Below, piece by piece: positions 1 to 54,222 of a stretch of 64,000 nucleotides of DNA. The first letter of the stretch is position 1. The number at the start of each line of letters is the position of its first letter. A program made the translations under genes and the position numbers. The notes under the pieces are model-generated. The model had not been told where the DNA came from. It saw only the letters and a program-made list of their open reading frames with translations, and searched no databases. This DNA is from Candidatus Omnitrophota bacterium (GTDB lineage: Bacteria > Omnitrophota > Gorgyraeia > Zapsychrales > Fredricksoniimonadaceae). The stretch spans positions 12,196 to 76,195 of the forward strand of contig JABDFL010000003.1 in assembly GCA_013286575.1 (NCBI GenBank), written 5' to 3'.

Positions 1-3000
1 GGACCAGGACAAACCCTGGATATTTTGCAACCAGAAGGCAGCGGCACAAGCGGAGGTGATGAAAGCCAAAAATATAGTGTCATGAATAGAATATATGGAA
101 CAGCGACCCAGTATGCGGGGAATATCTCCAGCATTACCGGCAATATAGGCATCGCGCTAAATGTTGATCCCAGCACAGGCGCGATAACCGGCTTTGACCA
201 AAGCCCCCTGGACATGCCCGGTGCCCATTATGTTGTACCGGACCAATTCTACAATCCTTATTTGACCGCTCAAAATGTCAGTCCCGCGGGAGCTTCGGTG
301 CCGGGACAATTACCAGGCATTTATATTGGAACAAATTCAGATGGTACGGACAAAAGGTTCGCCCAAGGCGAGTTTACAGTGACCAATACAGGTATCGATG
401 CCTCGGAAGGTTCAATATTAGCTAATGTTGTTCAAGATCATTCCATGCTTTCGAATGGGAAAATAGTATCAACTCCTACCGGAGATAAATGGGTTGTTGC
501 CGATAATAAGAACATGGTAATAACTGAACAACTCCAAAATGGGACATGGGTAAAGATGGCAGGCCTTAGTTCGATTAGCGGGGATGTTGATACCTGGGAT
601 TTAAAAAATAATGTTTTAGAAAAATCTGAATCGATGAATAATTTCGAAGATGCATGGCACCATTCTTGGTTTAGTGCTGGGATGGGGGATGCCATTGATG
701 TTGTAGACAAAATCCTTGCCATTCGTTTAGTAGGGGGAACAGGGATGGATTGGATGGCATCTGATAGTACAGGAGCACCGCAAGCAGGAGAGATAAAGCA
801 ATATTTCGAAGTTAAATCCGGAGATGTTAATGTCGACAGCCGAGCTTTGGGCAATGCAGTTTCCTCTAACAATGGTCCAATGCTGTTAAATTTGACGCAG
901 GATAAATCAGGTTATGGCTTTGGCTTTGATCTGATGACAGCCATGAATGCAGAGCAACATGATGTCGGGGGGGAACTTCAAACAACACAAGGCACGACCA
1001 ATTTGGGAACAGCTTATACTGCCAACACTGATGCCAGCCAACTTATTAATATCGGTAATGGCCTGAGGGCAGGAGGCACCATCGTTTTTAATCCATTCCA
1101 AACCTTTGGCATTAATATAGACCCTGACAACACCATTGTAAAACATGAGGACACAATGACCGTGGCCAAGCCGGCTGATCAAGGAGGGGCGGCGGGTTTA
1201 GCTGTTCTCCAAGATGTCAATCTTGTCTATCAGCCAACAGCTAATGCGGAGGGATGGGAGTTGGATTCGAAAGACAGTACTACTAAAGGCTATAGCCTGA
1301 CATGGGCAAAAGCAAATGAAAACGAAGAATCAACTTCAGTAGCTGTGGCAAATATACTTGGTTTTGAAACATATGATATAGCGAGCAGTACAGCAACAGT
1401 CAGTAACGATAATAGCGCTATAGCTCTCGATGGATCATTGCTGTTGCCTACAATAACGGTAACAGCCAAAAAAGAAGATAAGCCGTCTTTACTAGAGCAA
1501 GGCGATGTTATATGGGGATTTGGTACGGATAAGGGACAAGCTCCTCCCGAATGGGAAATCCAATCAGGCAGCGAGCAAATGACCACGACTACTGTAGGAA
1601 AAGATTTGAATTTATCGAGGGGACAATTTCAATCAGAATTGAATTTAGATCCAAGCGGTCTTAACATGCAAAGTTTTGGAACATTGCTTTTAACGGCAAA
1701 GGGAGCTATCCATACAGCTGGTGAGGGAGGCTTTGTTACTCCTGGAGGGGGTTCTATAAGCCAAGGAACAACTATTGAATATGATCCTGATGCAGCTAAT
1801 GGATTTAAGACCATTGAAAAACCTTATACCCTTTCTGAGATCCTGGCAGGTGGAAGAGCAACACAGACATTTTTTCCTGATACTGAAATGCGAGCAGCTC
1901 CATCAACTTGGGATCAAATAACGGATGCAATTCTGCATCCAATTAATTGGATTTCTGGAGAATGGGAGTTGGACACTGTTGAGAATCAAAACAGAGAGAA
2001 ATTTACGGAAGCTACAGGAATATATACAGAGCCAACAAAGCTTGCCATGGCGTATAGGTATATTATGGTAAGTTCCATGTTACTTGGTGGTAACCCATTA
2101 GGAGAGACATCTCTGTTCGGGTCAGGAAGCAGCTTAATGACAAACGGATTTAAAAGCATAGGTGGTCTATATGGTTTAACCGGAGCAAAGGCGATTTGGA
2201 CTGGAGTAGGAACCACAATGGGTGTAGCGGGTGCTTCAACAACAGGGATTAATCTTTATGAAGGAAATTCGTTAGGGAGGTCCCTAGCCTATGGCGCATT
2301 TGCTACCGCTGCTGTGCCGTCACTTTATTTATTAGCCGGAGGGGCAGGGGCTTTAGGTGGTTCTAATTTATCCCTCGCTGAGAGATTTGTTCAGAATGGT
2401 TTGGGAGTAAGCTCAGACACAGCAGGTTATACGTATGCCTTGTTTGGGACGCGTTTGGTAGCTAGTGAAACCCTTACTTTGGGAGTTCCTAACGCGTTTA
2501 GTTTATATAATAATCATGGGCTTCTGCCTTGGCAAACACAGGCAACATTATTAACGGCAGGTTTTTCTTATCCACTTGCTAAGCTTTTCTCTACTTCCCT
2601 CGTCCCTACAGAAAATGAAGTTTTAGGAGCAGGATATAGAGTTCTTCAGAACGCAGTCTCTCAAGGCTTAACATGGGGAGAAATCAACGTAGGTGTCTCT
2701 GCAGCGGAGAAAGCGTATGAAGGGAAAGATGTATCCGCAGCAAATTTGTGGACGGATTATCAGAACGGATTTTGGAATGGTCTTTTATTTGGCTCCGTAG
2801 CCGGTGTTGCAGGTGAAATTGCTGGGAGCAATTTGTCGACGGTATCGAAATATGCTTTGGCTGGCGGAATCGGCAGTCTTGGGAATGTAGCTGCGGGGTA
2901 TTTACACAGCACCCAAGAGCATCCGTATACTTGGAAACAAGCGGAAGAAGATTCGTTGGTCGGTGCTGCAATGGGTGCTTTAGGATTAACTTCTTTAAAA

Positions 3001-6000
3001 AATGTAGAGTTTCTTCAAGGGCTATCATTGGGAAATAAGGCTGCGGTCTATGCTACAAGCGCGATTGTCGGTGCCGGAAGCAGAATATTAGACGAGGATA
3101 TCTTTCATTCCGATGAGAAGAATGCGTATACAATGGACAGAGCTATATCTGATGCTACCGTTGGTGCCGGCATGGGACTTTTAGGAATGAAATTTCTGTC
3201 TGGTTTGAAAGATTCGGGGATAGAGCAGACTGCAGAACAGCGCTTTGCCAGCAAAATGTTAGCGGATAATTTGTTAGACACTTCTGTTAAAGGAGCTTTA
3301 AAATGGATCACTGTTTCACCTGCGTTTACAGTCGGTAATGCTCTTTGGAATGGCCACCTGGGAGATATTAACATAAGCAAAGGCGATGCTTTTGATTTAG
3401 TTGAATCGGCCATCAATGGACCATTATCCGGACGATGGATGAACGTTATTTTTAATGCGTCCCAGGTACAGGGAGTGACACCATCGGAGGGATCTGTACG
3501 GCAAATATTGCAAAATTTGCAAAAGGGGCCCTTGGAAAGTGCTTTAGGACAGCATGCCTGGAGTAATATTATTTATATGCCGGGCTTTATGACACTTACC
3601 AATAAAGCTACAGCCAGCGTAGACGCTGTTTTGCCTGCCCCTGTTATGGGAGAAATGACAAAACAGTTTTTAAGTTTTGGAGCAATGACAGCGTTGCCTG
3701 CTTATGGGACTCGGGGGATAAAAGAGTTAACTACAGGTTATGAGTCTTTGAATGAAGGGAAGATTGAGTCTGCTGAGAAATCTTTTCAAAACGCAGTTGA
3801 TCTTGATCCTAACAATATGCAAGCCCGTGTTGGGTTGGCTAGCGTTCAGGATGCATTAGGAAGAACAACGCCAGATGCAATAGATAATTTTCAGAAGCTC
3901 GGAGCCTACGCTTTGGAAACGGCTAATAGCGGTACGTTAGATTTAGTTGTTAGAGGATTGGCCTCTGCAGGCGAATTGGAAGCTGCCCAAACATTAAATA
4001 GCAAGGCAATAGATTCAGGCAAATTCTCCAATACTGAAGCACTAACTCAAAGGCAAACAGTATTTAATCAAGCTTTGGAATTACCAAGAAATAGCGTAGC
4101 CTCTCCTGAGGACGTAGGGGCGCAAATAGACAATTTGGCTTCCGCAGCACAGGCCCAGAGTAAGGCTCAATATAAATCATTAGTGGGAGATTTGGTGGCA
4201 GTTGCCAGAGGATTGTCAGGGAAAAGCATTGATCAGGGACGTAATTTTTCAACATTGTTTGGGAATGCGGCGCTTACGCATGCAGCAGATTCTTCAAAAA
4301 TCAATGTTGCTTTAAATTTAGCGATATCTTACCAACGCGTTAGAGATTTCAATAAAGGATTGGATATTTTACAAAGATTGCCTAATGGTGCCAGGATCAA
4401 CAGAAGCATTTTAGGGATGGAAGATGAGTTAATGCAAGGACTTCAACGTATAAACACGGCGGCAAGAACCTTAGCTGAAGATGGCGATTTTCAAGAATCA
4501 GTAAATTTATTAACACAGAGGGGAGATAATGAAAGTCTTACGAGGACAATCCCCATTATTTTAAGAGCTATAAATGAGGGGGAAACAATCGATGTTCTTG
4601 GAATGAAAATAAGTAAAATTGAAGATATGCCTGCTTTATTGGAAAGAATCAAGACGCAGGTCAACAGAGAAGAATTCAGCACAGAATTGGATTCACTATG
4701 GAACCAAGTGAGTTCGAGATTGGCAGAAGCACAGAAGGCTACGGCCGGAGACCATGATTTGATAGGTAAAAATCATGCAGCTGTTGATTGGACCCAAGCA
4801 CGTAAAAATGCTGTAGGGCAAGCGGTAGAAGAAATGGTCCAAGGATTAAAGGCCAACAGGACATTTAATCTGCGAAACGGTACCATAGAAATTCATCTGG
4901 TAAAGTCAGGTTCCTTGCCTGAGGGATTTGAAAGCGGCATGGGTGTTATTAAAAGAAATAGTGATGGCACGACTAGAACAATTATTCTGGTGGAAGATGC
5001 CAAAGCTTTAGGCCATGAAGTCAAAGAAGCGGATTTTCGTTATCGTATGGATATGCATAGGATTTGGGTTGAAAGTGGCGGCAAGGAAGGCATGAAGGCT
5101 ACTGACCAACAGCTTGCATTGTGGAGCAAGAATGGATTCAAGGTGGATGATATATCCACGGATAGTAATGCCGCCCATAGATCGGTTGTGGAAGTTGGAT
5201 TTGGTGAAGGCAAAAAAGTGGCTGTGCCGAGGGCACCACCTGCTGTAGGTGAAGCGCAGGGTAATTATGACGTTTTTGGTGAAGGTCACATTTCGCAAAC
5301 TCCCTCCCAATCATTATCTTCCGGCATGGAGGCTTCTGTCATTGATCAATTCTCTACAAGTATCGATAATCTCCTTAGAGATGCAGATAAACAAACTGCC
5401 TTAGAAAATGCAGGAGAAGCTCAAGGTGAAGCTGCATTTTTATCTCTTTATACTCAAATTTTTAGAGAATATAGGGGGCAAAAAGTAGAGGCAAATGATA
5501 GTAGCATCCAAAACCAGGGAACATTGCTGCGTGAATCCAGAAGATTATTAAGAGAACTATTGACACTCAAAAATCAGTATGGGCAGGCGCTTAAAGACAA
5601 AGATGATACTGAAGGTCTAAAAAGATTGGATGCTCTTTTTGCGGGAACGGTTCGCTTTACCCAAGCTATGGATAACTTTGATTTTGGTAGCCGAGCTCAA
5701 GCTGAGGTTAGAGATACATACCAGATTAAAGCCATTGAAGCGTTAGAAAAGTTAGCCCAAGATGATCCTGTAAACGCTGCAAAATATTTATTAAAAGCAA
5801 CAGAATATCAAACGCTCCGTAGTTTGGATCAAGAGGATTTTCAATCCACAGGAGGTCCAAATGGCACAGAGCGTGTTGATACTGCATTTAAACGTGCACA
5901 AGATTTTCTAAAAGCAGCTAGGGAAGCCGACACTAAGAAGGAATACACGGAACAGTTGAATGCCCTAGAACGTAAACTCAATAGTGATGAGCAATTAATT

Positions 6001-9000
6001 AAGACACACCAAGATATTGTCATTGCGTATAATCTTATCCTTAAGGCTGCTGAAATTCAAATGTCTAAAGGGCCAGAAGGACAAATCAAGGCTCAGGCAA
6101 AAGAAGCATTAAATGCCATTCAAAGAGCTACCGATAGATTAGGTATCAACGATGATCTCCAACCGATTTTTAAACACTTAAATGACTTAAGGAGAATGGT
6201 CACTGCCATAGAAGAAACAGGCTATGTTGCAGATGTTTCAGGTTCAGATGTTAAGAAGGCTATAGAATCCAATCGTTCAATAGCACCTTCAGGTGAAACG
6301 GCCCGAGAAAAATCCGTCCGTGAATTTACTGATGGACTTCGCAGATTACAGAACCTCAAGCTTATCCTTAGGCACGATATATTACATCCCCAAAAAGAGT
6401 TGGCCAGTGTCCTTAGAGACGCATATAAGGCTTTTAATGATTGGGAAAAGCCGCGCGTTAAGACCCTTGAAAATGTGGGCAACTCTAAATATGATCCTGA
6501 TGCAATGATTGAGGAATCGCGTAGGACATGGCTTGAACCAATAAAGGGATTGAATGTAGATCTTGCAAGGAGTATCAATGATCTTATAAGAGGGGATAGC
6601 GCAAAGTATCAGTTAGGAAAAGAAGCATTATTTAGAAGTATTCAAGACCAGCTTGAACAACCTGGTTCTAAATGGAGTTTAGAAGAATTTAGCGCTATTG
6701 TGGATATTTTTAAGACGGTCCATCGACTCAACATGGAAAAAGAGAATAAGTCATGGACGGTCAAAAGTGAGGACATTGCCGGGTTAAAGGCGATGATAGA
6801 CTATGTTCAAGGAGATGGGAAAAATCCTTTAGTGTGGGTAAAAATGATGTCCGGCGGTAAAACAATGCTTTATAGGGCTTTAGCTGAACAATTGGCCACG
6901 AAAGGGATTGGCGGTAAAAAATATAGTACCGTTATTTCAACGGCGAATAGAGACCTGGCAAAGGAATTGGAAAACAATATTTTTTACAGACCCAAGGAAG
7001 ATCGTTCAGGAAAAGTGATATTAACTGAGGAGAATCTTAAGCCTATTTCCGGAAGAATTTTAGTTTTAACCCACCAGGAATTAATGGAGATCGCCTTGCA
7101 TGAGGTAAAAACAGGAAAGAATTTATTGAAAGGATATGATGTTAACCTTATTGACGAAATTCATGCGTTGATGAATTCTGCGCCCTTAATTGATGGGACA
7201 GCTTTTGAAAACGGCCGTCGGGTGTATCAATCCTTAGACCAAACTAACCAGACTAAAGTCAAAGATTGGCGAAAGGCCGAAGAATTGTTGGATCAAATTG
7301 CCCGTCAAGTTGATGCCCAAGTCAGAGAATATGAAGGCGGAAGTATTTTTGAATATACTCGTAAAGGAGATGGTGCAGCGATCATTGGATCAAGAGGAAT
7401 TAAGGAGAGCTTTAAAGCGGAGGTTGAGAAGAAATGGCGTGAAGCAGCATTAGCCCAAGGTATCCATGTTGAAAATTTGTACTCCGAAGATCAAATAAAC
7501 AAAGAATTAATGGAGAATGTTGCTTTTGCCATTGAAGGTTATGGTAAAGATTCCTACAAAGTAGATTTTAAGAACGGTGAACTTTTTATAGCTCCGGTAG
7601 AGCATGGAGATAACACAGGACGCATTAATTGGAATCAGATTTTTGGTGATGGTGGCAAAGGTTTTAATGCCCGTTCCCGTATGGTCATCGCACATTTAAA
7701 TAACTTAGCAAAGATAGGAGAATTAAAAAGCGCTTCGGGAAGAAAGTTACAAGGAATAGATGACTTATCGTATTTCATAAAGGTCATGCATGACCAAACT
7801 TCAATGGCTATGCCAGCCAACGCATTGGAACTGGTGGGGAAAAAGATTGGTGCTACAGGAACTCCCGATGAAGCTGCAGGTGCCTTATCTGCCCGTAACA
7901 GCAGCTATGTTCAATTTGAAAAGAACATCACGCTAGATATGTTAAATGTGGATGGCAGGTATTTTAAAAGCAGGCAAGCTAAGTTAGATTATATTGCTGA
8001 TGAGGTTGTGAAATCTTTGATCGCGCAAAGAGATGGGGAATTAGGTAATAAAAATGTCTTTAAACTAATCCACTTAAATGAATTACGTGACCGCCAGGAT
8101 CTCTACAATCTAATTGCAGGAAAGTTAAGAGCTGTAAACATTGAACAGAGCGGCATTTTGCACTTGGCGGACCTCCCGGAAGCCAGGCCAGTGCCCAATG
8201 AACAAAAGAGTGAGTCGGAATTAAATACCATCCAGAAAATTGCTAATAGATTCGACGCAGGTGATTATATAGGAAAGAATTTAATTGTTATTGCATCTGT
8301 CAAAGAAGGCGTCTCTTTCAGCGAAAAGGGAATTATGGATAAAAATGTCCTTTCCCAAGTTGGTATACAAGGGACAAGATTAGATCCTAATTATAGGGGG
8401 GAGGATGGTATTTGGGAAGATGTTTTGGATAAGGATGGTAAGCCCACAGAGAAGGTGCGTTTAAAAGAGAACGTTAATTTGGAAGCTAACGAAACGGAGT
8501 TTAAGAGAATTGCTGGAAAGAATGCAGAAGAAGTTTGGCATATCCTACAAGATGCCAGGGGATACGATGCAGAAGTGATAGTAGCTAGTTTAGGTTCTAA
8601 ATCTGCGGTGTTACAGACCTTGATGAGGCTTAATACAATGGATCCTGAGAAGGCAAAGAATAATCCTGCAGCGGCAGAAATTTATGAGGCCGTGAAAGGA
8701 AACCGTCTTACTGCCAAAGCAACTATCTTAACAGATGCAGAGGATCGCAATTTAACAAATGACAGCAGAGCTAGCTTTGAAAATCCAAAGATAGGCTTCT
8801 TAGATGCCGCACAGGAAGTAATGACCAAAATGGCACTTAACCAAGTAGCACACGGCATACTGAATGTTTCGCGCCAGACAGAAGGTTCAAGTATTGAAAA
8901 AGTCAGCGAAGTCATTCGTCAATTTGACCAGCGTTTGATGGATAATTTTGTCAGACAAGTTGGTACGAGACAGACTTTAGGAGGGCTTCCTTATATGGTT

Positions 9001-15000: not shown

Positions 15001-18000
15001 AGGGGGCTAAGATCTGATTTTAACTATGTTAATGAGAGGGAATACCTTAATAGATTCATTGTTAGGGTTGTTGCCCCGGGTATTATTTCATCTGTACTAA
15101 CCTTCCTCAGGTTAGCATACAGAAGATGGTATAAAAGAGGAAAAAGAGCAGAAGTAACTGTGTTACATGAAGTTGTAGGAAATGAAGGTTCGAAAACTGT
15201 AGGTGCGGCAAATAGAAAAAACAGTGGCTTAGCGCAAGCTATGTCCGCTGGAAAAGTAGTAGAAGCAAGATCAAGATATACCCGTTCTCGTCCTGGTAAC
15301 AGGACGTTGAGAAGCACGGATGGAATTATAAGTAGAAGCGAACGTAGCCTAAATGGCAAAGCTGCAAGAGGTGTGGGAACTGTGTCCACCATCAAGGCAG
15401 CCAGAGCCATACAAGGCATAAGCGCCCTAGGTGTGCGAGGTGTAGAAATTGCGCCCAAGGGTGGCGACCTAATCGCAAAATATAAAAATAACAATCAAAA
15501 AAATGGTGGAGTAAAGACACAGAAACTGTTTGTCCGCACAGGGAATGGCCCTAAAGAAATTAGGGCCATTCCCGCTGCCGATGCCTCGCAGAACGGCCAG
15601 CCCCGTGAAGTTATCAATGCAGAAATTGCCAGACTAGGAGGCATTCATAGTAATGGATGGTCCAAATTCAGCTTTTGGCAAAGCGTAAAAACGATCTTCC
15701 GGGCAGCCTGGTATTTACCTGCTATGAGTGTTCGGGGGCAGTTTATGTACGAATGGTGGCAAGGGCGCATTGCATTTACCCGCGCCCCGCCGCAATGGAA
15801 ATTCGGCGATGCCAATACCAAAGACGGTGAAGTTGATTATGTTATTGTTTCCCCGCTAAGCACCAGCCGCAGTAAAGCCCATGAAGTCTGGGCAGTGTTA
15901 TATCCCTACGAACCTCATTCACGAAACCCGATTAACCAGTTTACGATGCAAGAAAAAGCAAAAGCTTATCAAAGTATCCTTGATGAAGCAGTTGCAGAAA
16001 AGGTCAGCGACACTGCCAAATTTCTCGGCCGCACACCGCTTGAATTCAGTTATAGGTTTAACAGAAACAGGAAATGGAGTGATCCTAATGAAGTTGTAGA
16101 GGATGGCGATGATATCTCGCTTGTTATTCCTCTGCATGAAGAAGCTGCTTTGCAGGAATATGTCCAAAAAATACGGGCAATCATCCTGGAGTGTATTGCG
16201 CAGGAGAATGTTTGTTTTTCCCCCACAGATGAGCTGCACACCACTATTGGGTACTATATACGCCAGAATAAGGTCGCTGCGGAGAGCATGCAAATGTTGG
16301 AGCCTCACTTTTTAAAATCTGTGCGCGGCATTGGTCCTTATAGCTATACCATCCACCGGCCGTTTTTGGCGGATTCTTTTAGTATCATCATCTCCTTGCG
16401 CACATCTTCCCCGGCTGTCATGCGCATGCGCGAGCGGATAAAGGACTATGGCAGGGAAAATAACATGACCTTGGGCAAAAATGTTGGCATCGGGGACATC
16501 AACCATGTGACGGTCGCCCATATAATAGAAAATGTCGACGTCGCTAAATTAAGAGAATTATATGAGCGCTTAAATCAAGAAGCAGCAGAAATGGAAAATA
16601 GGGACAGCCCAATTGAAGTCCGTGCCCGGCAGGCGGGGTTGGTCCTTGCGCATAAGTGGGCCAGGATCCAGGGGCGGTTCATCCATCTGGGGGTGTGGAA
16701 GAGATTAAAAATCACCGGTGGACCTGATAAGGCAGTTAATTCTTGGGGGAACGGCCCGGATCCTGCCCGCAGCAGTGTGGATTTAAACGCCAGGCAGCGT
16801 GGCCGTTTTTGGAAGCTCCTCAATGGAAAGACTTCCAAACCGGCCCAGGAACCGGATGGGGATACCCGGGTTGAATTAGAAGTCATCAGGTCCCGGGCAA
16901 GGCGCCTATTTTATCAATATGGATTTGATGATTTAGGGGATTGGGCGGCAACTTTGCGTCTAACATTACCCCATTCCAAAACAGCCAGAAGGGTAAGGAA
17001 GTGGTCTCAAGAAGAGGACATGGTTATTTCAGGGGCACATACGAAATCAGCCCCTGGAGGGCCTGCCGACATTTTATTTTTCCCGCCCGCGTTTAAAAGC
17101 AAAAACGAATTATTAAGGACATTTGTCCATGAAGCAGGGGCTTCTTTCGGGTTTCCGCATCAAGCCGATGTCATTTTAGAAAATATTGTCGACGGCAAGA
17201 TCTCAACCCAAGACATCGAGATGTTAAAAGATTTAATGAGATCAATTAAAAGGATGCCGGGGTACAACTATTACGTTTTGCATAATACAAAGAAGGTGCT
17301 CGGCGTGTTTGGGATGTTGCGTAAATATGCGGTGCCCTATTTAAAATCTAAATTTAAGGGCATGCCCATCAAGGCCCTGGAGTATGGATTGCGTCCCCTG
17401 GAACGCTGGTCCATGGCGCCTGTATGGCGGTTTGCCATTGCCTGCGAAGAAGCCGGCATTAGCAATTATGCCATTGATGTTTATGACGAGGACATGGACC
17501 GCTTGCTGGAAGCGGGGGAAGGGGTTTATTTGCCGCAGCATTTTTATGATTTAGAAACGGGTGAGTGGCATGGAAAGGATGGGAAGCGTCTGGCCCAAAA
17601 ATATTTTGACCGGCTGCCTGACGGAAGGTTCCGGATTAAACAGGATATCCGCCGGCGCATCAATCCGCGGACAGACATCGGCGGTGGGTATCATATTATT
17701 ATGCTTAATTATGTTTTTTTCCTTGAAGAAGAAAAGGAAGACGGCGGGAACACCAGGTTGATCGTAAAAAGGGTTGAAGACGCGGCTGTTGATGAGGGGA
17801 TTGTGCTGACAACCGGACGTAAATGGTTTGACCGTCCGTTAGTAACAAATTTTAAAAAGATTGCAGCCTCGTTGACGCCGTATAGGGAAAGAGGCAAGGA
17901 AACGGTCGAGATCAGTTTATATCAGTGTGAAAAAGTTGACTATCAGGACGATAAAGTTTATGAAGAAATTTGGAATGACATCCTCAAAAAGCTTGCTCCC

Positions 18001-21000
18001 TATCTGGGGGAACTGGAATTGATCCGTAATTTCTGGGTTCTGGCTAAAAGTATTTATTCAAAACCCCGCCGGAACCTTCAGAAATACATTATCCATCCCT
18101 TGCGCATGCTGCGCCTGATACTCCCCATGATCGGGACTGCTTTTATCCAAAGGCTGGGCATACCGTTGCATTTATGGGTCATGGCTATTTTAGGGCACGA
18201 TTTCCTGGAAGAAGACAGGCTCCACCAGGCTGAAAATATCAATGCCATACGGGAAGTGTTCGGACACAAAGGCATCCCGATGAAATTTGACAGTAAGCTA
18301 TTGCGCAGCCTTTTGTTTATGATTCTGGTGATGACTCGGGATGTAAAGAGGGACGAGAAACACGAAGAAGAAGATGACAGGGTTTATATCGCCAGATTAG
18401 GGGATTTCAATAAATCATTACAGTTTGTAAACAGGTACTGGAAAACATTATTCCCGGGGGAGAGCCATCCTAATGCCAAAGATTATTTTACACTATTGAC
18501 ACGACGGGAGAAATATATTCTTTGGAGGGCTTCTTTGAATATAAAGGCGGTGGACAGCACTGATTATATGATTGATCCATTCTGGGACAGGCCCTTGAGT
18601 GCCATTTATGACAAAATTGAGAGGAGATTGGCCTGGGTTGGCGTGCTTTTTTCTTATAAAAGCCGTCATCTTGGTCCCAGGAGTTTTATTTTTCCTGAGG
18701 TTTGGGAGCTGATGCAAGATACTTACTTACAGTTGTATATGCCTGAATTGGTCCAGGAAGGGTTACCAGAAGGGCCTATTTCCTCGGCATCGACCGGTGG
18801 CAAGTTGGCAGGTCTATTATTGGTATTAGGAGGTGGGATGCTTTTGGCCCTTCCTGCCCATGCAGCAGAGATAACGCAAAGCTTGGCAGCTGTGGCCCCG
18901 CATGTTTCCCGCATCCCTCAAATACTTTTATCACCCATGGGCTTTATTTTTTTCAGCATAGCAATGATTAGGGCTGGGGGGACACCTGTCGTAAAGGCAA
19001 AGCTTGTAAAGTCATTGATCTCGATACTGCAGGTGTCAATATCATCGGGCGCGAAGTATTTAAAAACCATTACAATCCGTTTTCCGCAGGATGCCGGTGT
19101 GGATTTATCAGCTTTTGAAGGGCCCGTTGGACTGCAAGTCCCTGGAAATCCATTGATCGCATTTCATTTTATCAATGGAAAGTTCAGGATAATCGACGGA
19201 ATGTCTGCCAATGTGCGTCACGGAACGGTAACGATTATTCTTCCGGCTCAATCTAAGATCAGCGATGTGATCATCAGGCTGGGGGATGGAAAAGAAAATA
19301 AGGTCGGCGAGGCAGTTTTGCAGGATGAATTCATCAGGGTCCTTTATCTGGGCAACGGCCGTTTTCATTGGGAGTGGAAAAATGCAGCGTATTTTCATGA
19401 GCATAAAGACCATAGGACCACAACTGCTGCTAAAGCTGCAGTTAAAGATCCATCCATGTCCGCTTCTCGGTCTCTGATAATTGGTGTTGCCGGTGTATTA
19501 GCATCATTATTTATTCCCGGCTTTGCGCATGCCGGAACATTTGCGTATATTTTTGGAGATATTTTTGTTCTGGATAATCTTTTTCTTCCTTCAAACATCA
19601 AGTTAATAGGGTTGGTGCTATGGATGCTTCTTATGGGGGCAGTCATAGTTTTTTGCGGCATTATGATGTTCCGTGGGGAGAGAGGTAGTCCTATTCGGGC
19701 AAACCCGGCGGCTGGTTCCGCCGGAGGGTTCAAATTTATTGTCAGTCTTTTTGAAAATCCACGATGGCCATTGTACCAAGTCTTTGGCCCAAGCTTTCAG
19801 AGGATCATTAAAAACACCTTCGGTCCCATGGAGGGGCTGGCATTGGCTGATATTGGGACATTTGATCTGTATTTTCCCGCCGAAATATCTCGTCAGGTAA
19901 GCGTGAAAATTTTAAGCGCTATTTGGGGTATCGATAAAGAGCTCCCGGCAGAATACGAAGGTGACGTTGTTAAATTGAGCTCCAGGGCCGTAGCATATGT
20001 TACAAGGGTCATGCAGGAGCGCCAAGCCGATCCTCGCATTAAACATAAAATATTAGACATCACCTCAGATGCCGGCGACTTGTTTTTAATGCAGGGAGAC
20101 ATTCATATCCTGACGTTCAATCACCCGGAACTTGGGAAAGAAGTAATGGACAGGATATTAAGAGCTTTTAGTCTTTCAGAAGGTCCCAAGCTGGTTTTGA
20201 TGAGGCTTCATCCCATGGATGACAGCGACAATACTTATAAGGAATGGATTATTGGCGGGCTCAGGGCATTGGGGTACACGGTTAAAATTTATCCTTCATT
20301 AAAGGGCTATCCCAACAGTTGGAGCACTGCGATCTACACGCCCCATGGGCCGGTTATTGTGGCCAGCCGTCCTGTTGGGGACGGGGAGAAATACGCACAA
20401 GATCCGATTTTTAATATGCAACACCCGGCCCGCACATTTACCGCAGTTGGCATTGCTTTCTTGGCCGTCTTGACCTCACCCGTTGCCCATGCCGCCGAGA
20501 GGAGTACAGGTTTTATGGGGGGGACAGGGACCGGTTTATCATGGTTAATAGGACTGATGTTAGTTTTAGTTGCGTGGCCATTTTTGGTTATTGCATGGGA
20601 TTACTTGAGTGGGATTTTTTGGTTCCGGCAGAAAGATTTATTTTTACAACAGGCATGGTTTATCGAGAAGCAGCTTTCAGACCTGGACAGATCACAGGAA
20701 AATAGAAAGGGCAGTCCCGCGTTTTATCAGGGAGGGCTTAATAGATGGCTTAGAGAATGGGAGAATTTATGTCAAGAAAATAGGAATCTCACAAATGGAA
20801 TTGCGGTATTCTTTGTCCCCTGGCGAGATTTTGATCATAGAATCAGCACTGTTAAAAAAAGGATCCAGGCCAGGATCAATGGGACCGAAGTTCCGTCGCC
20901 AACCGGCCACCCAGCCGCCGAAAGCCGGTTGCAAGGGACCATGTCCCTGTTCAGGAATTTAGCCGACAAAAGTATTTTATTACCGGCCATTTTGCTTATG

Positions 21001-21036
21001 GCAGCTACGACCGGCATAACCGCTGGTTTTATGTAA
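1..21036 (+). CDS. giant multidomain protein, 5' end outside the window (>7,000 aa)
   Basis: The track gives one uninterrupted frame-1 ORF at 25..21036 (7003 aa). Codons 1-24 are also stop-free, so the gene is open to the left edge. The TAA stop is at 21034-21036. A 21-kb stop-free frame cannot arise by chance at this base composition. Recognisable modules are listed as separate features. Confidence 0.9.
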   Translation, partial: GPGQTLDILQPEGSGTSGGDESQKYSVMNRIYGTATQYAGNISSITGNIGIALNVDPSTGAITGFDQSPLDMPGAHYVVPDQFYNPYLTAQNVSPAGASVPGQLPGIYIGTNSDGTDKRFAQGEFTVTNTGIDASEGSILANVVQDHSMLSNGKIVSTPTGDKWVVADNKNMVITEQLQNGTWVKMAGLSSISGDVDTWDLKNNVLEKSESMNNFEDAWHHSWFSAGMGDAIDVVDKILAIRLVGGTGMDWMASDSTGAPQAGEIKQYFEVKSGDVNVDSRALGNAVSSNNGPMLLNLTQDKSGYGFGFDLMTAMNAEQHDVGGELQTTQGTTNLGTAYTANTDASQLINIGNGLRAGGTIVFNPFQTFGINIDPDNTIVKHEDTMTVAKPADQGGAAGLAVLQDVNLVYQPTANAEGWELDSKDSTTKGYSLTWAKANENEESTSVAVANILGFETYDIASSTATVSNDNSAIALDGSLLLPTITVTAKKEDKPSLLEQGDVIWGFGTDKGQAPPEWEIQSGSEQMTTTTVGKDLNLSRGQFQSELNLDPSGLNMQSFGTLLLTAKGAIHTAGEGGFVTPGGGSISQGTTIEYDPDAANGFKTIEKPYTLSEILAGGRATQTFFPDTEMRAAPSTWDQITDAILHPINWISGEWELDTVENQNREKFTEATGIYTEPTKLAMAYRYIMVSSMLLGGNPLGETSLFGSGSSLMTNGFKSIGGLYGLTGAKAIWTGVGTTMGVAGASTTGINLYEGNSLGRSLAYGAFATAAVPSLYLLAGGAGALGGSNLSLAERFVQNGLGVSSDTAGYTYALFGTRLVASETLTLGVPNAFSLYNNHGLLPWQTQATLLTAGFSYPLAKLFSTSLVPTENEVLGAGYRVLQNAVSQGLTWGEINVGVSAAEKAYEGKDVSAANLWTDYQNGFWNGLLFGSVAGVAGEIAGSNLSTVSKYALAGGIGSLGNVAAGYLHSTQEHPYTWKQAEEDSLVGAAMGALGLTSLKNVEFLQGLSLGNKAAVYATSAIVGAGSRILDEDIFHSDEKNAYTMDRAISDATVGAGMGLLGMKFLSGLKDSGIEQTAEQRFASKMLADNLLDTSVKGALKWITVSPAFTVGNALWNGHLGDINISKGDAFDLVESAINGPLSGRWMNVIFNASQVQGVTPSEGSVRQILQNLQKGPLESALGQHAWSNIIYMPGFMTLTNKATASVDAVLPAPVMGEMTKQFLSFGAMTALPAYGTRGIKELTTGYESLNEGKIESAEKSFQNAVDLDPNNMQARVGLASVQDALGRTTPDAIDNFQKLGAYALETANSGTLDLVVRGLASAGELEAAQTLNSKAIDSGKFSNTEALTQRQTVFNQALELPRNSVASPEDVGAQIDNLASAAQAQSKAQYKSLVGDLVAVARGLSGKSIDQGRNFSTLFGNAALTHAADSSKINVALNLAISYQRVRDFNKGLDILQRLPNGARINRSILGMEDELMQGLQRINTAARTLAEDGDFQESVNLLTQRGDNESLTRTIPIILRAINEGETIDVLGMKISKIEDMPALLERIKTQVNREEFSTELDSLWNQVSSRLAEAQKATAGDHDLIGKNHAAVDWTQARKNAVGQAVEEMVQGLKANRTFNLRNGTIEIHLVKSGSLPEGFESGMGVIKRNSDGTTRTIILVEDAKALGHEVKEADFRYRMDMHRIWVESGGKEGMKATDQQLALWSKNGFKVDDISTDSNAAHRSVVEVGFGEGKKVAVPRAPPAVGEAQGNYDVFGEGHISQTPSQSLSSGMEASVIDQFSTSIDNLLRDADKQTALENAGEAQGEAAFLSLYTQIFREYRGQKVEANDSSIQNQGTLLRESRRLLRELLTLKNQYGQALKDKDDTEGLKRLDALFAGTVRFTQAMDNFDFGSRAQAEVRDTYQIKAIEALEKLAQDDPVNAAKYLLKATEYQTLRSLDQEDFQSTGGPNGTERVDTAFKRAQDFLKAAREADTKKEYTEQLNALERKLNSDEQLIKTHQDIVIAYNLILKAAEIQMSKGPEGQIKAQAKEALNAIQRATDRLGINDDLQPIFKHLNDLRRMVTAIEETGYVADVSGSDVKKAIESNRSIAPSGETAREKSVREFTDGLRRLQNLKLILRHDILHPQKELASVLRDAYKAFNDWEKPRVKTLENVGNSKYDPDAMIEESRRTWLEPIKGLNVDLARSINDLIRGDSAKYQLGKEALFRSIQDQLEQPGSKWSLEEFSAIVDIFKTVHRLNMEKENKSWTVKSEDIAGLKAMIDYVQGDGKNPLVWVKMMSGGKTMLYRALAEQLATKGIGGKKYSTVISTANRDLAKELENNIFYRPKEDRSGKVILTEENLKPISGRILVLTHQELMEIALHEVKTGKNLLKGYDVNLIDEIHALMNSAPLIDGTAFENGRRVYQSLDQTNQTKVKDWRKAEELLDQIARQVDAQVREYEGGSIFEYTRKGDGAAIIGSRGIKESFKAEVEKKWREAALAQGIHVENLYSEDQINKELMENVAFAIEGYGKDSYKVDFKNGELFIAPVEHGDNTGRINWNQIFGDGGKGFNARSRMVIAHLNNLAKIGELKSASGRKLQGIDDLSYFIKVMHDQTSMAMPANALELVGKKIGATGTPDEAAGALSARNSSYVQFEKNITLDMLNVDGRYFKSRQAKLDYIADEVVKSLIAQRDGELGNKNVFKLIHLNELRDRQDLYNLIAGKLRAVNIEQSGILHLADLPEARPVPNEQKSESELNTIQKIANRFDAGDYIGKNLIVIASVKEGVSFSEKGIMDKNVLSQVGIQGTRLDPNYRGEDGIWEDVLDKDGKPTEKVRLKENVNLEANETEFKRIAGKNAEEVWHILQDARGYDAEVIVASLGSKSAVLQTLMRLNTMDPEKAKNNPAAAEIYEAVKGNRLTAKATILTDAEDRNLTNDSRASFENPKIGFLDAAQEVMTKMALNQVAHGILNVSRQTEGSSIEKVSEVIRQFDQRLMDNFVRQVGTRQTLGGLPYMVVPQSGGFAYYKDNSLGSDFGNATEDQYEGDFKHMLSLAGATGLHVDKNGGAIVPSGHVYNIETGDVWALNNYNRPEAERGDALGTVVRMVVPKEYVSPYSDTPVTHEERSVLAKITPESQTKSERVAVVNTHWNWIVSGIISKRVNVRLNWIANQTMTPEFKGGFLAGNNPIQIGGQEWTSEDPIKQTETDHLGTVYLVKEGKGTKDIKKGDVKFVVIKGQIHPIAKGQDSLKAIIDHEITLPDETRRDIKMEVEVAIKDGKVTEKRGVLKLESPIRTQRTVIKSNGKMVEETVELEDGDKLELLKTKNLGVKITEISGKNDGKPKFYMQENKLYQAVKFKNEGYGFVLPSIVKIAKVQGSPSGMYETVMDKVFIKRASGEIELDHIGMRTKGENGKPEILEKTGEIKQGRRTVGYLHNDQRFDIDRNNPLAPVVWVNDDLAGRRLLKVLGYSPTARRNNKNQIAVPLSKFRKYVLKIKQQVEILGTATDELRQKNYAKGDESAKKAIEAAKSLLDLFGIGYTESTDKGKPVLVINPSESTHPLAELVNFVSQLNGLGKKVKDGADKKIPARVVFNPYLEDKGTAGLMGNEQMDIGPSSFIAYASDFARLEAGVLEHEAFGHGMGRSLRMMRTYTLVGQGTIIDLSSDHQRSQQGIYGGYKSVNEALTNPIIEAGLKFLTGLRLLFMGNIKQARRFFQEAATVIERGRNIAYSIADRFGEALTVVNKAMAGDKEKAKDIIWHNDSETGIPLATVILRDDAGKAIVAVAIPIPEKELPDDVKNKKGNELLQVLLEKSKKLILEHASIMAVREAILGRYGYDKPLWDFINNNLTTDSELWDDTADKDQNKYKAKIRQLTIENALKDSGMVQAIEAIKQAGILSEQNATPVNVMRIISSILSSGQKPQVSKDKKVYTYTDPRNNRSFTINLETNKIIFSKGSASINQFNDIQQDWEEAVAKRKAERNARAKELQEQMQKAERDSAIEASERTLDEVIAMTLNPNEPIRLSRIETGDAASNVYQVELADRMLLNHETAYLQAGIENKVLSAKSKMLRRTITDAEAMAEGVTAKGQDFLGKDLVDQVNLSSESWFGRKKLTNMSTAVRIVWNQLVKDQKVAFENGKWVQKQKFAVLFTARDEAEDAEHPNARRELIEHESTHGRFFTEDDFRDATYEIWRSKLSKRQKKEVEKFLDKMGYDKHQPWLMATEFGAWFRDFKSVTDITEKSDKLGELFNNETLRKSFVAVQDELIKMESDAGYRAKLASTYRAQNIPPAVEPQPERQTNTRRPAVEAAPTLASNSPVVSSGEKTIDMVIPGESGSKLQPIIVPSNILPSNNFTSSSYSVTFMPDGYPTTASAPQGDQTNGNSFEQIQLTPITQSISLQDGRDSYRLAAEEASVKTQSAPSANPSDSAMTGISGKVVSGAAWKPGSSTRVSAESVNNASMVNNYSDDGVVLLTFWLKKYGVETTVTLMIENLAGFARTFVAIDPNDFDKDSTLESWKEAQDFITKLMRGLTKQKFEVDLRAASVVRIKRGQNPKFVRGMLMELAELYVGNVPGGQVLYADAMGVKKPVVRVVFHASKKIASSPAAFRNETTHRSLLQRINNEFAALIHQFNSKEIAASPLAPRNDMMGTSPSPKARSIQLPGFKNTVMSNIVAQSNAVVRENIPSFTRALLLQAAAHDPDLFMSFAKGIPLARGELPESVRYYVLSHSSAFIPPLVAAQARYNSETALQQALALTLPPVSNVGSSVATESNVVSLINPSMVATDQADDIAMTTWQHGNLIKWQKSGARYSDPKKDGAMIYIDFALKGRLLPLRGNTDASMKAALGVAPDDFLNIDAGDTNDSGMMVIKDLESPAIQQARERLRSTVVYIIRHIQFPGATKKEVRRRMQIIWTEVLRMYGKIEAKDVWLEAKNRAKRMLNGVSNTLRLLPGMMPPVNGPGRTWPKADERAAAIVMPFTPTAPKERPGGPPGPPAPEIAPAPPTTPGAFLRASFVRNAGMRGLRSDFNYVNEREYLNRFIVRVVAPGIISSVLTFLRLAYRRWYKRGKRAEVTVLHEVVGNEGSKTVGAANRKNSGLAQAMSAGKVVEARSRYTRSRPGNRTLRSTDGIISRSERSLNGKAARGVGTVSTIKAARAIQGISALGVRGVEIAPKGGDLIAKYKNNNQKNGGVKTQKLFVRTGNGPKEIRAIPAADASQNGQPREVINAEIARLGGIHSNGWSKFSFWQSVKTIFRAAWYLPAMSVRGQFMYEWWQGRIAFTRAPPQWKFGDANTKDGEVDYVIVSPLSTSRSKAHEVWAVLYPYEPHSRNPINQFTMQEKAKAYQSILDEAVAEKVSDTAKFLGRTPLEFSYRFNRNRKWSDPNEVVEDGDDISLVIPLHEEAALQEYVQKIRAIILECIAQENVCFSPTDELHTTIGYYIRQNKVAAESMQMLEPHFLKSVRGIGPYSYTIHRPFLADSFSIIISLRTSSPAVMRMRERIKDYGRENNMTLGKNVGIGDINHVTVAHIIENVDVAKLRELYERLNQEAAEMENRDSPIEVRARQAGLVLAHKWARIQGRFIHLGVWKRLKITGGPDKAVNSWGNGPDPARSSVDLNARQRGRFWKLLNGKTSKPAQEPDGDTRVELEVIRSRARRLFYQYGFDDLGDWAATLRLTLPHSKTARRVRKWSQEEDMVISGAHTKSAPGGPADILFFPPAFKSKNELLRTFVHEAGASFGFPHQADVILENIVDGKISTQDIEMLKDLMRSIKRMPGYNYYVLHNTKKVLGVFGMLRKYAVPYLKSKFKGMPIKALEYGLRPLERWSMAPVWRFAIACEEAGISNYAIDVYDEDMDRLLEAGEGVYLPQHFYDLETGEWHGKDGKRLAQKYFDRLPDGRFRIKQDIRRRINPRTDIGGGYHIIMLNYVFFLEEEKEDGGNTRLIVKRVEDAAVDEGIVLTTGRKWFDRPLVTNFKKIAASLTPYRERGKETVEISLYQCEKVDYQDDKVYEEIWNDILKKLAPYLGELELIRNFWVLAKSIYSKPRRNLQKYIIHPLRMLRLILPMIGTAFIQRLGIPLHLWVMAILGHDFLEEDRLHQAENINAIREVFGHKGIPMKFDSKLLRSLLFMILVMTRDVKRDEKHEEEDDRVYIARLGDFNKSLQFVNRYWKTLFPGESHPNAKDYFTLLTRREKYILWRASLNIKAVDSTDYMIDPFWDRPLSAIYDKIERRLAWVGVLFSYKSRHLGPRSFIFPEVWELMQDTYLQLYMPELVQEGLPEGPISSASTGGKLAGLLLVLGGGMLLALPAHAAEITQSLAAVAPHVSRIPQILLSPMGFIFFSIAMIRAGGTPVVKAKLVKSLISILQVSISSGAKYLKTITIRFPQDAGVDLSAFEGPVGLQVPGNPLIAFHFINGKFRIIDGMSANVRHGTVTIILPAQSKISDVIIRLGDGKENKVGEAVLQDEFIRVLYLGNGRFHWEWKNAAYFHEHKDHRTTTAAKAAVKDPSMSASRSLIIGVAGVLASLFIPGFAHAGTFAYIFGDIFVLDNLFLPSNIKLIGLVLWMLLMGAVIVFCGIMMFRGERGSPIRANPAAGSAGGFKFIVSLFENPRWPLYQVFGPSFQRIIKNTFGPMEGLALADIGTFDLYFPAEISRQVSVKILSAIWGIDKELPAEYEGDVVKLSSRAVAYVTRVMQERQADPRIKHKILDITSDAGDLFLMQGDIHILTFNHPELGKEVMDRILRAFSLSEGPKLVLMRLHPMDDSDNTYKEWIIGGLRALGYTVKIYPSLKGYPNSWSTAIYTPHGPVIVASRPVGDGEKYAQDPIFNMQHPARTFTAVGIAFLAVLTSPVAHAAERSTGFMGGTGTGLSWLIGLMLVLVAWPFLVIAWDYLSGIFWFRQKDLFLQQAWFIEKQLSDLDRSQENRKGSPAFYQGGLNRWLREWENLCQENRNLTNGIAVFFVPWRDFDHRISTVKKRIQARINGTEVPSPTGHPAAESRLQGTMSLFRNLADKSILLPAILLMAATTGITAGFM
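3750..3880 (+). other. TPR-like repeat inside the giant ORF
   Basis: The translation 'NEGKIESAEKSFQNAVDLDPNNMQARVGLASVQDALGR' has the typical TPR pattern (A..F..A..LDP.N..A...LA). Further helical repeats probably follow. Confidence 0.4.
6750..8400 (+). other. SecA-like DEAD motor / SF2 ATPase module inside the giant ORF
   Basis: A Walker A-like 'KMMSGGKTML' is at nt 6851-6865, and 'NLIDEIHALMNSAPLIDG' (DEIH at nt 7153-7164) resembles SecA 'VDEVDSILIDEARTPLI'. 'KIGATGTPDEAAG' (nt 7849-7866) resembles SecA 'LAGMTGTADTE', and a later 'NLIVIASVKEGVSF' resembles 'VTIATNMAGRGTDI'. The order and spacing of these motifs match the SecA NBD1, insert, NBD2 layout. Confidence 0.5.
13736..13775 (-). repeat. 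type-1 palindromic repeat copy (decayed), in frame inside the giant ORF
   Basis: The reverse complement 'gtttcattacggaaagccgcaggcgacgaagcaatctttt' matches the family consensus GTGTCATTGCGAG..N..CGACGAAGCAATCTTTT. It is translated as 'KKIASSPAAFRNET'. Confidence 0.7.
13843..13883 (-). repeat. type-1 palindromic repeat copy, in frame inside the giant ORF
   Basis: The reverse complement 'atgtcattgcgaggagccaacggcgacgcggcaatctcttt' matches the family consensus. It is translated as 'KEIAASPLAPRNDM' and lies about 105 nt from the previous copy. Confidence 0.75.
16090..16600 (+). other. 2H phosphoesterase (LigT / cyclic phosphodiesterase-like) module inside the giant ORF
   Basis: There are two H-x-T-x motifs about 90 aa apart, 'ELHTTIGYY' (nt 16237-16248) and 'INHVTVAHI' (nt 16504-16515). 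They are preceded by 'ISLVIPL', which is the layout of the 2H superfamily. Confidence 0.55.
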
Positions 21037-21071
21037 AAAAATAATAACCCCCATTAGAAAGGAGAACGGCC

Positions 21072-21428
21072 ATGGATGAACGCAGACAGCTGCCCCGCTG
21101 GCAGGTCAAGAGGGAAGTCAAGGCTTGGCTGCCCCAAATGCAGGAATTCAGGCATTGCATCATTGAGGACATAAACCTCAAAGGGATGTGCGCCTCTTTT
21201 AGTAAACGATTACCCCCAGAACAGCCGGTGAGCATGTCTTTGAGCTTTGAGAATGATTTTAATTTAATGAAGGTCGAGGTCAATCTGCCCTGGGTCAAGG
21301 AAGAGCAGGGGAGGTATGTTTATGGGATGAGTTTCAACAAAATTATGGACGCGGACAAGGACAGGATATACCAATACATCAGCAACTATTGTTCCGAACA
21401 ATTCAGGGAGAAATGGTGGGCGGTATAA
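21072..21428 (+). CDS. PilZ domain protein (c-di-GMP binding)
   Basis: This 118-aa protein has the 'RRQLPR' (RxxxR) and 'DINLKG' (D/NxSxxG-like) motif pair of PilZ. An AAGGAG RBS lies at 21057-21062. Confidence 0.65.
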   Translation: MDERRQLPRWQVKREVKAWLPQMQEFRHCIIEDINLKGMCASFSKRLPPEQPVSMSLSFENDFNLMKVEVNLPWVKEEQGRYVYGMSFNKIMDADKDRIYQYISNYCSEQFREKWWAV

Positions 21429-21433
21429 ATCTT

Positions 21434-33658: not shown

Positions 33659-33722
33659 ATTAAAGATTTAGTTACAATCGATTTTCTGCATCTATAGTAT
33701 TATATGTTGGATGAGGTGTGAT

Positions 33723-34165
33723 ATGGCGGGTAAGAAAAGTTTTACCTTGATGGAAATAATAGTGACGCTGATGGTGATCGGTGTCTTGGCCGCCATTTCC
33801 ATTCCTGCCTATAATACTTTCGTACAAAATGGGGCTTCCCAGGCTGCTGCCAATAATTTGTCTGCCATTTATGGGGCGGAACAGAATTATTATTTCAAAA
33901 AGGGAACGTATTGTGTCAATACAGGTTCCAATCCCACGTGCGCAGATACCCTGCCGGACATCAACGCCAATTTGTCGTTAAACGTTACTGACAATTATTA
34001 CTCCTATTCGTGCGCAATGCAGGTATCTAGTACGAATGCAATTTGCTGTTCGGCAACTGCGAATAATTCGAATTTTCCGGCTGTAGCTTCCAAATGTGGA
34101 GGAACGTGTACTCCCAACTGTGTCGGGGCTGTTTGCGGGGCATCTGACGGATGCGGCGGCACATG
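33723..34165 (+). repeat. duplicated pilin 5' segment (copy 1 of 2)
   Basis: This 443 nt is colinear without indels with 35164-35606, at a constant offset of 1441 nt. I counted 18 amino-acid differences in the first ~148 codons by hand. Confidence 0.85.
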
Positions 34166-35054: not shown

Positions 35055-35163
35055 GCCTTAAAGACCTGCATGATGTCGATGGATCTTGAAAAATCAATGT
35101 TAAAGAATTTCTAATGTTTGATTTCTCCCGTTTTTGGTGTTATATATTTATAAGAGGTATAAT

Positions 35164-54217: not shown

Positions 54218-54222
54218 AAATT

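Follow-up and report, generated by a model that had tools for sequence, protein, structure and literature searches.

A probable member of the Omnitrophota giant-protein class with a divergent SecA-like module and an almost wholly orphan body

We analysed 64,000 nucleotides (nt) of metagenome-derived DNA from a Candidatus Omnitrophota bacterium (assembly GCA_013286575.1, contig JABDFL010000003.1, positions 12,196 to 76,195 of the forward strand; hereafter the window), the first 21,036 nt of which form the 3′ part of a giant open reading frame (ORF). The gene probably encodes a membrane-anchored, multi-module protein of at least 9,049 amino acids (aa) that belongs to the giant-protein class already described for Omnitrophota; we put the probability of this reading at roughly 0.6. 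Judged by its sequence, the protein is unusual mainly since almost none of it resembles anything known. A first-pass annotation, made from the letters of the DNA, had called proteins of this kind rare and the function of this one unknown, which overstated the novelty: giant genes that are rich in transmembrane (TM) segments, carry a divergent SecA and are followed by pilZ have already been described for this phylum, and the window gene adds little to the claim that they exist. Such genes are presumed to be the basis of attachment and of predation or episymbiosis in these ultra-small bacteria.

A single coding frame of at least 27.1 kb

Frame 1 of the forward strand is free of stops over 7,011 codons (1–21036, +) and closes with a stop codon at 21034–21036. 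From the base composition a stop is expected once per 16 codons, which puts the chance of a stop-free run of this length at approximately 1e-198; the next longest open frame within the window measures 2.7 kb. Scored with a codon model derived from ten of the window's housekeeping genes, frame 1 came out highest in 14 of 14 blocks of 1.5 kb. Because frame 1 is the best in every block, the whole 21-kb stretch is coding in one frame. A recoded stop codon behind the long frame was ruled out, as all three stop codons are absent from it.

The frame is still open at the 5′ edge of the window, which holds the 3′ three-quarters or less of the gene. An identity look-up with the downstream PilZ gene retrieved a Logan contig (SRR8422330_126, 28,194 nt) that is 100% identical to window positions 11072–22079. 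The gene product on this contig is listed as 9,049 residues and is itself cut by the contig end, so we are dealing with one real gene of at least 27.1 kb, for which 9,049 aa and 27.1 kb are lower bounds. The single ORF of at least 21 kb (more than 7,000 aa) reported in the first-pass annotation was thus borne out and lengthened by a second assembly, and all of the landmarks listed for it were found where they had been placed. Recovery of the missing 5′ end, which had been suggested as a check, reached the bound of 9,049 aa but not the true start: metagenome contig scans with aa 1–600 and aa 1590–2700 and an identity look-up with mutL returned nothing.

An assembly artefact, in which a chimeric join or a collapsed repeat produced a spurious long frame, is extremely improbable. 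The metagenomic origin of the sequence would allow for it, the first 11 kb have no close relative to confirm their collinearity, and GC content at third codon positions (GC3) steps from approximately 0.35 to approximately 0.46 near nt 12–13 kb (0.32–0.38 up to about nt 12 kb and 0.41–0.50 beyond, with 0.52–0.69 in the housekeeping genes). However, the step coincides with a low-complexity Ser/Thr/Pro-rich linker, as expected at a domain-fusion boundary, and suggests a mosaic origin of the giant ORF. To the improbability of a 21-kb frame left open by chance and the same-frame coding signal in every block can be added that a second assembler gave the identical 3′ 11 kb and extended the frame to 27 kb, that a distant relative (contig L017, see below) has two blocks collinear with aa 1602–2680, and that the ORF lacks repeats prone to misassembly. 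No tandem or dispersed repeats were detected anywhere in it, and cysteine is scarce (only 6 in 7,011 residues). An RTX protein, an autotransporter or a repeat adhesin was ruled out, as the ORF contains neither repeats nor such domains.

A putative, very divergent SecA-type module in an otherwise almost wholly orphan protein

Sequence comparisons indicate that the body of the giant protein is almost entirely orphan. An exhaustive phmmer search of 1.84 billion representative proteins with aa 2200–3399 yielded four matches (E 5e-14 to 1e-6), all of them on aa ~2256–2657. One match, P0002, has the P-loop, the DE-box and the segments that follow in common with the giant protein, while another, P0003, is a stand-alone protein of 330 aa in an unrelated neighbourhood. 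Approximately 420 of the 7,011 in-window residues have a detectable relative, and all of these belong to the SecA-like motor, which shows the range of divergence within the class. As only the motor has relatives, we argue that it is the constrained, mechanistically essential core. A word-indexed search of 5.8 billion clusters gave nothing for aa 2201–3100 or aa 5011–7011, a protein search with profile A2 returned P0003 itself as its sole hit, a genome contig scan with the ATPase piece found no match, and PDB sequence searches with four parts of the protein and with profile A1 produced weak matches to designed TPR proteins only. Long pieces of the protein retrieved a sub-threshold TPR alone from Pfam and NCBIfam; domain-sized fragments added TPR_19 and ResIII and nothing else.

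P0002 is encoded on an 8.7-kb contig from the European Nucleotide Archive (L017), on which an orphan block of the giant protein (aa 1602–1736; 4804–5208, +) is also kept, at 435–860 (tblastn E 4e-12, 32% identity). The ORFs of L017 hop between frames and contain in-frame stops, a pattern that suggests a related long gene fragmented by errors. The block shows a conserved pattern, HE[VI]xE followed after some 10 residues by H..W, to which no family could be assigned.

The residues with relatives (aa 2257–2680; 6769–8040, +) appear to form a very divergent SecA-type motor, consisting of a first nucleotide-binding domain (NBD1) and an insert that resembles the preprotein cross-linking domain (PPXD). 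This assignment is moderately supported, and ATPase activity is putative. The P-loop is of the SecA type (M-x-[ST]-G-x-GKT), with a Walker A motif MMSGGKT at 6844–6864 that by eye corresponds to MRTGEGKT of SecA. The DEIH/SAPLIDG box begins at nt 7153, the SecA equivalent of the SAPLIDG segment being DEVDSILIDEARTPLIISG, and approximately 230 residues past the DE-box lies GATGT (7849–7863), which reads GMTGT in SecA. BLASTP against Escherichia coli SecA aligned the insert to the PPXD (SecA 296–352), with an E-value of 0.012 for the single comparison. Global HH alignment to a SecA profile built from seven diverse SecA/SecA2 sequences (profile A4) threaded Walker A, motif Ia, the DE/PLI box, the PPXD and GxTGT collinearly over SecA 80–450, pairing the motif Ia-like TANRDLA with TVNDYLA of SecA. 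Its score of 30.2 compares with 6.2 ± 4.1 for 60 block-shuffled controls (maximum 24.2; 0 of 60 reach the score) and 6.8 for the reversed profile, while HH comparison with a single SecA sequence or with an SNF2 control was uninformative. In Pfam searches with domain-sized fragments, aa 2274–2393 came near the threshold for ResIII, the SF2 helicase domain 1 (E 2.7e-4, 21.3 bits against a cut-off of 22.5), and so did relative P0002.

The module therefore has the P-loop type of canonical SecA, a DE-box followed by a ...PLI.G stem, and a PPXD-aligned insert between Walker B and GxTGT. Unlike canonical SecA it is embedded in a protein of at least 9,049 aa that showed no sign of a helical scaffold, a wing or a C-terminal linker domain, and outside the motifs its identity to E. 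coli SecA does not rise above noise. Neither SecA_PP_bind nor SecA_SW was matched in Pfam, and BLAST found no similarity to E. coli SecA beyond the PPXD. The SecA-like ATPase previously read at ~6750–8400 thus stands in respect of its motifs and their collinear alignment, but the similarity is remote, with no significant SecA profile match and no demonstrable second nucleotide-binding domain (NBD2).

The PPXD-like sub-domain also occurs in stand-alone proteins of approximately 330–510 aa (P0001, P0003, P0004 and L018 10001–10993), which join it to Cys-rich (CxxC...WRCxxC), zinc-ribbon-like N-termini and whose genomic context is unrelated to giant genes.

Probable membrane anchoring and membership of the giant-protein class

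Hydropathy revealed seven strong TM segments in the last 750 aa, in agreement with the several C-terminal TM segments noted at first pass. They are arranged as three hairpins, comprising aa 6269–6289 and 6305–6323 (18805–18969, +), aa 6491–6510 and 6535–6557 (19453–19671, +) and aa 6812–6832 and 6843–6866 (20416–20598, +), and a terminal TM segment (aa 6991–7011; 20971–21033, +). Because the second helix of every hairpin is succeeded by basic residues, the hairpin loops are predicted to lie outside and the large soluble stretches inside, and we infer that the ATPase and these stretches are cytoplasmic and tethered to the inner membrane. Gly-rich segments and an acidic N-proximal region (see below) are candidates for membrane-inserted or exposed parts.

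Giant genes of Omnitrophota encode numerous TM regions, and most of them carry divergent SecA DEAD and preprotein-binding domains without scaffold and wing; pilZ homologues come directly after most of them, and loci resembling type II secretion systems or type IV pili, with class III signal peptide genes, precede them (West-Roberts et al. 2023, 10.1101/2023.11.21.568195). Like these proteins, whose type example is the giant protein of Velamenicoccus archaeovorus, the window protein comes from the same phylum and has a very long ORF, multiple TM segments including hairpins, and mostly unannotatable sequence. It also has what we read as a divergent SecA DEAD plus preprotein-binding-like module lacking scaffold and wing, with pilZ as the next gene downstream and prepilin-type (class III signal peptide) genes in the vicinity. 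Among 916 catalogued proteins of at least 10,000 aa, 94% have a TM segment or signal peptide and 15% match none of the member databases; when a wider set of 5,761 such proteins was clustered at 30% identity, singletons made up 80% of the clusters (Nielsen & Lui 2026, 10.64898/2026.06.07.730766). The orphan status of the window protein matches these figures. Repeated domains are found in 65% of Pfam-positive long proteins, whereas the window protein has no internal repeats. Three internal signal-peptidase-like AHA sites, discussed below, are a further difference, since such sites are described in neither preprint. The domains of archaeovorin (glycosyl transferase, glycosyl hydrolase, methyltransferase, peptidase and NUDIX) had no Pfam or NCBIfam match in the 7,011 aa, and the features of dockerin-type giants were likewise absent from them (no dockerin or TSP3 repeat match, no internal repeats).

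Several points weigh against this assignment. 'Giant' has been defined as more than 30,000 aa (10.1101/2023.11.21.568195) and the catalogue begins at 10,000 aa (10.64898/2026.06.07.730766), while the length shown here, at least 9,049 aa of a 5′-incomplete product, is a bound below both; the 5′ end of the ORF and its upstream neighbourhood, in which a locus resembling a type II secretion system would be expected, lie outside the window. The SecA-like module is too divergent for Pfam SecA_DEAD (PF07517), which had no match even at E ≤ 10, and local HH alignment to the SecA profile, although it recovered the same PPXD correspondence, was not significant (E 0.088; 4 of 60 shuffles reach the score). 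An NBD2 with arginine fingers, a scaffold or a wing could not be demonstrated, NBD2 remnants being discernible by eye only. The AlphaFold2 model of the ATPase region, made from a five-sequence alignment, had a mean confidence (pLDDT) of 40 and was unusable, and Foldseek searches of the PDB returned noise; because of this the SecA assignment is an argument from motifs and collinearity only. The topology, too, is a simple hydropathy and positive-inside reading rather than the output of a trained predictor, and would change if a further hydrophobic segment at aa 5020–5038 were a real TM helix.

With these points taken into account, a membrane-anchored member of the Omnitrophota class is still the reading that we prefer. 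If the protein works as proposed for the class, its built-in SecA-like motor may help to thread or insert segments of the long polypeptide, or of a partner, via the Sec channel; PilZ may couple the activity or deployment of the giant protein to cyclic di-GMP (c-di-GMP), and the fast-evolving body may act in contact with a host or prey. Self-assisted insertion or export, c-di-GMP control and the host or prey role are all inferred from the class.

Signal-peptide-like elements in the C-terminal hairpins

The first helix of each hairpin resembles a Sec signal peptide, with a basic n-region, an uncharged h-region of 17–20 aa, Pro at −5/−6 and A-H-A at −3 to −1. The three sites read LALP-AHA|AE (AHA at aa 6286–6288), FIPGF-AHA|GT (aa 6509–6511) and LTSPV-AHA|AE (aa 6829–6831), and Met begins two of the three elements, hairpin 2 coming after M6485-SASR and hairpin 3 after M6806-QHPAR. 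Among the 7,011 aa the tripeptide AHA is confined to these three sites, at each of which it closes an h-region.

These elements raise the tentative possibility that the protein is a polyprotein, made as one chain and cut by type I signal peptidase at the three internal AHA|A/G elements into several membrane-anchored products. In a variant of this idea, the C-terminal modules are once-separate genes for secreted or membrane proteins that were fused in frame. The restriction of AHA to the ends of h-regions, the helix-breaking Pro and basic n-region at every site and the initial Met of two elements are all consistent with it, and a second TM segment followed by basic residues at each site means that the AxA would face the periplasm. 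Whether giant proteins are cleaved has been left open and cleavage points are unknown (West-Roberts et al. 2023, 10.1101/2023.11.21.568195), and processing by signal peptidase is considered in neither preprint (10.1101/2023.11.21.568195; 10.64898/2026.06.07.730766). On the other hand, cleavage at the AHA sites is purely hypothetical, three sites make a small sample, and the three modules are not paralogous. The giant ORFs of relatives often have TM hairpins without AxA, so that AHA could be incidental, and the genuine signal peptides in the window do not use it.

Flavivirus polyproteins are cleaved at internal signal sequences, and they offer a mechanistic analogy only: both are long multi-pass chains with internal signal-peptide-like segments and AxA on the non-cytoplasmic side, but there is no homology, the context here is bacterial and the cleavage hypothetical. 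If cleavage did take place, it would release a giant N-terminal fragment anchored by its tail, together with three smaller membrane proteins, and cleavage points would have been predicted for the first time in a giant protein of Omnitrophota. It would also mean that giant genes can grow through the in-frame capture of neighbouring secreted-protein genes. As concrete candidate processing sites, the AHA elements bear on whether giant proteins act as a single chain.

The two Met residues bear as well on an arrangement of nested genes, in which independent proteins arise from internal starts in the long frame and the giant protein is not the functional unit. They stand exactly at the starts of signal-peptide-like elements, and the frame contains 169 in-frame ATG codons, 19 of which have an upstream Shine–Dalgarno (SD)-like core; on L017, the distant relative, the annotation shows several separate ORFs in a row. 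However, M6485 and M6806 have no preceding SD, and SD cores are found for only 4 of 18 window genes, hence little can be read from the SD count. L017 looks as if it had been fragmented by frameshift and stop errors inside homologous blocks, and with no stop between the modules ribosomes from upstream would read through anyway. We judge nested genes to be very unlikely and continue to treat the giant protein as a single membrane-anchored chain.

Apparent turnover of giant genes upstream of pilZ and mutL

The PilZ gene adjacent to the giant ORF, already recognized at first pass, was confirmed: it starts 35 nt downstream and encodes a PilZ-domain protein of 118 aa (21072–21428, +; PF07238, E 5.9e-9, 36.6 bits against a cut-off of 22.5). 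PilZ is a c-di-GMP receptor domain characterized by the motifs RxxxR and D/NxSxxG. Here RxxxR is invariant and the second motif takes the form DxxxxG, in which Ser is replaced by N or H. After pilZ the gene order is mutL and mutS (both on the other strand), trmB, a DD-carboxypeptidase gene, a dsbA-like gene, glmS and a pyr operon.

A mutL probe identified 13 syntenic loci, eight titled as Candidatus Omnitrophota metagenome-assembled genomes (MAGs) and five as 'uncultured Planctomycetales' with the same synteny; in most of the 13, mutL, mutS, glmS and their neighbours are 73–89% identical. On this sequence evidence the host is a Candidatus Omnitrophota bacterium, and the mutL-anchored synteny bears out the earlier guess that the DNA comes from an uncultivated small-celled bacterium.

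Eight syntenic relatives likewise have, in the same orientation, a long ORF that ends just upstream of pilZ and runs off the fetched locus. The survey of homologues and their neighbourhood that had been suggested gave a divided result, since all eight relatives keep pilZ-mutL-mutS, but none of their giant ORFs is detectably similar to the window protein. The relatives' PilZ proteins are 44–75% identical beside these unrelated giant ORFs, whose Pfam domains differ (VTC, adenylate kinase, GNAT, GT1 and fn3/Ig). The presence of unrelated giant ORFs at a fixed slot points to rapid turnover or replacement upstream of pilZ-mutL, as expected for an interaction or arms-race locus. Within the fixed order of giant gene, pilZ, mutL and mutS, pilZ is conserved while the giant gene appears to be replaced, a pattern typical of loci under diversifying selection. 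That the window protein is both a polyprotein cut on the periplasmic face (at aa 6286, 6509 and 6829) and the occupant of a replacement hotspot upstream of pilZ-mutL is, as a joint proposition, doubtful.

The giant ORFs of L001, L002, L003, L004, L006, L008, L009 and L013 share a hydrophobic, β-like C-terminal module of approximately 60–100 aa that ends ...TTYxYT(I/L)(I/V)V; the window protein is without it and ends in a TM helix. An extra ORF of 880–1,716 aa lies between mutL and pilZ in most of the syntenic relatives (L002, L003, L006, L008, L009 and L013), its N-terminal ~350 aa being approximately 45–53% conserved between these loci. The window, L004 and L001 lack this ORF.

A TPR-like stretch and the proposed enzymatic modules

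The TPR-like repeats noticed at about nt 3750 are present at a near-threshold level (aa 1249–1354; 3745–4062, +), but their significance remains below the Pfam cut-off. TPR_19 matched a domain-sized fragment at aa 1252–1289 (E 1.3e-4, 22.6 bits against a cut-off of 25), and designed TPR proteins in the PDB matched over aa 1250–1354 (E 0.003).

The enzymatic modules read by eye fared worse. The proposed 2H phosphoesterase is a candidate 2H-like region (aa 5365–5565; 16093–16695, +) that we could not confirm. It contains two H-h-T-h motifs, HTTI at aa 5413 and HVTV at aa 5502, and an HxTx pair 89 aa apart arises in shuffled sequences with a probability of approximately 0.035; each motif lies within a predicted β-strand of a β-α-β unit. 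The spacing agrees with the 2H superfamily, whose two H-x-T/S-x motifs are separated by approximately 80–90 aa. Pfam and NCBIfam gave no match for aa 5365–5565, with domain-sized fragments at E ≤ 10 included. HH comparison with a ThpR profile, which covers only the ThpR branch of the 2H superfamily, scored 4.7 against 3.6 ± 2.6 for shuffles, 17 of 60 of which reach the score, and a single-sequence AlphaFold2 model of the region was unusable (pLDDT 42), with noise from Foldseek against the PDB. The lone HExxH (HESTH, 12457–12471) occurs once, as would be expected by chance with a probability of approximately 0.10, and lacks a protease profile match. HD-domain phosphohydrolases are marked by an H...HD...D metal-binding signature; the possible HD motif (GHDF, aa 6065–6068) has no profile match either, the HD dipeptide occurring 6 times against 6.1 expected.

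It is accordingly unlikely that the protein is a cytoplasmic, membrane-tethered multi-enzyme scaffold whose real 2H, HExxH metalloprotease and HD modules act on nucleotides or RNA. Multi-enzyme giants are a described architectural class, the giants of relatives at this locus bear VTC, adenylate kinase and GNAT domains, and the spacing and strand placement of the two HxTx motifs would suit such a scaffold. Against it stand the failure of all three modules to match Pfam or NCBIfam even as fragments at E ≤ 10, the ease with which shuffles equal the ThpR score, the chance-level HExxH and HD motifs and the unusable structure models.

Composition of the remaining ORF body

The window begins with an acidic stretch (aa 1–650; 1–1950, +) in which Ser, Thr, Gly and Asn are abundant, no domain was recognized in Pfam, NCBIfam or PDB sequence searches, and the chain is possibly exposed. 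It is followed by weakly hydrophobic, uncharged segments rich in Gly and Ala (aa ~690–1130; 2068–3390, +; G 14–15%, A 11–14%), which may be membrane segments of the glycine-zipper type. Composition (aa 650–1130) agrees with the glycine-rich hydrophobic segments of the first-pass annotation, as it does (aa ~4940–4990, with the earlier landmark at about aa 4960–4987) with its proline-rich linker (14818–14970, +), which includes ...PGGPPGPPAPEIAPAPPTTPG... in translation. For the lysine-rich β-like repeats only half of the description survives: the region is Lys-rich (aa 3190–3440; 9568–10320, +; K+R 19%), with charged and hydrophobic residues alternating, but it gave no repeat signal (best off-diagonal score 30 against 31.7 ± 3.9). 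The Ser/Thr/Pro-rich linker at the GC3 step is probably disordered (aa 4250–4460; 12748–13380, +).

Other genes in the window

Two adjacent and unusually large pilin-like proteins of 447 and 886 aa (33711–35054 and 35134–37794, +) are encoded 12.7 kb downstream of the giant gene. Both match TIGR02532, the cleavage/methylation domain of prepilin N-termini (19.1 and 18.9 bits against a cut-off of 16.3), with GspG/PilA-like matches at E 1e-9 to 2e-11. Their prepilin-type N-termini are near-identical (GKKSFTLMEIIVTLMVIGVLAAISIPAY), and the remainder of each is without a family match. Just past these genes and a methyltransferase gene lies an ORF of 513 aa (38968–40509, +) with a sub-threshold match to the SdpB family of export proteins (TIGR04033, E 3e-9, 36.8 bits against a cut-off of 178).

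The last part of the window, after an amino-acid permease gene, is a low-GC island (52000–64000; 33–37% GC against 47–53% elsewhere). It encodes a C5 DNA methylase (52508–54217), a weak ParB/ddrB-like ORF (54223–55536), an SNF2 helicase (55533–57524), a NOV_C-domain protein (57499–58506) and an IS1595-type transposase (59571–60578, −), and is probably a mobile defence or restriction-modification island.

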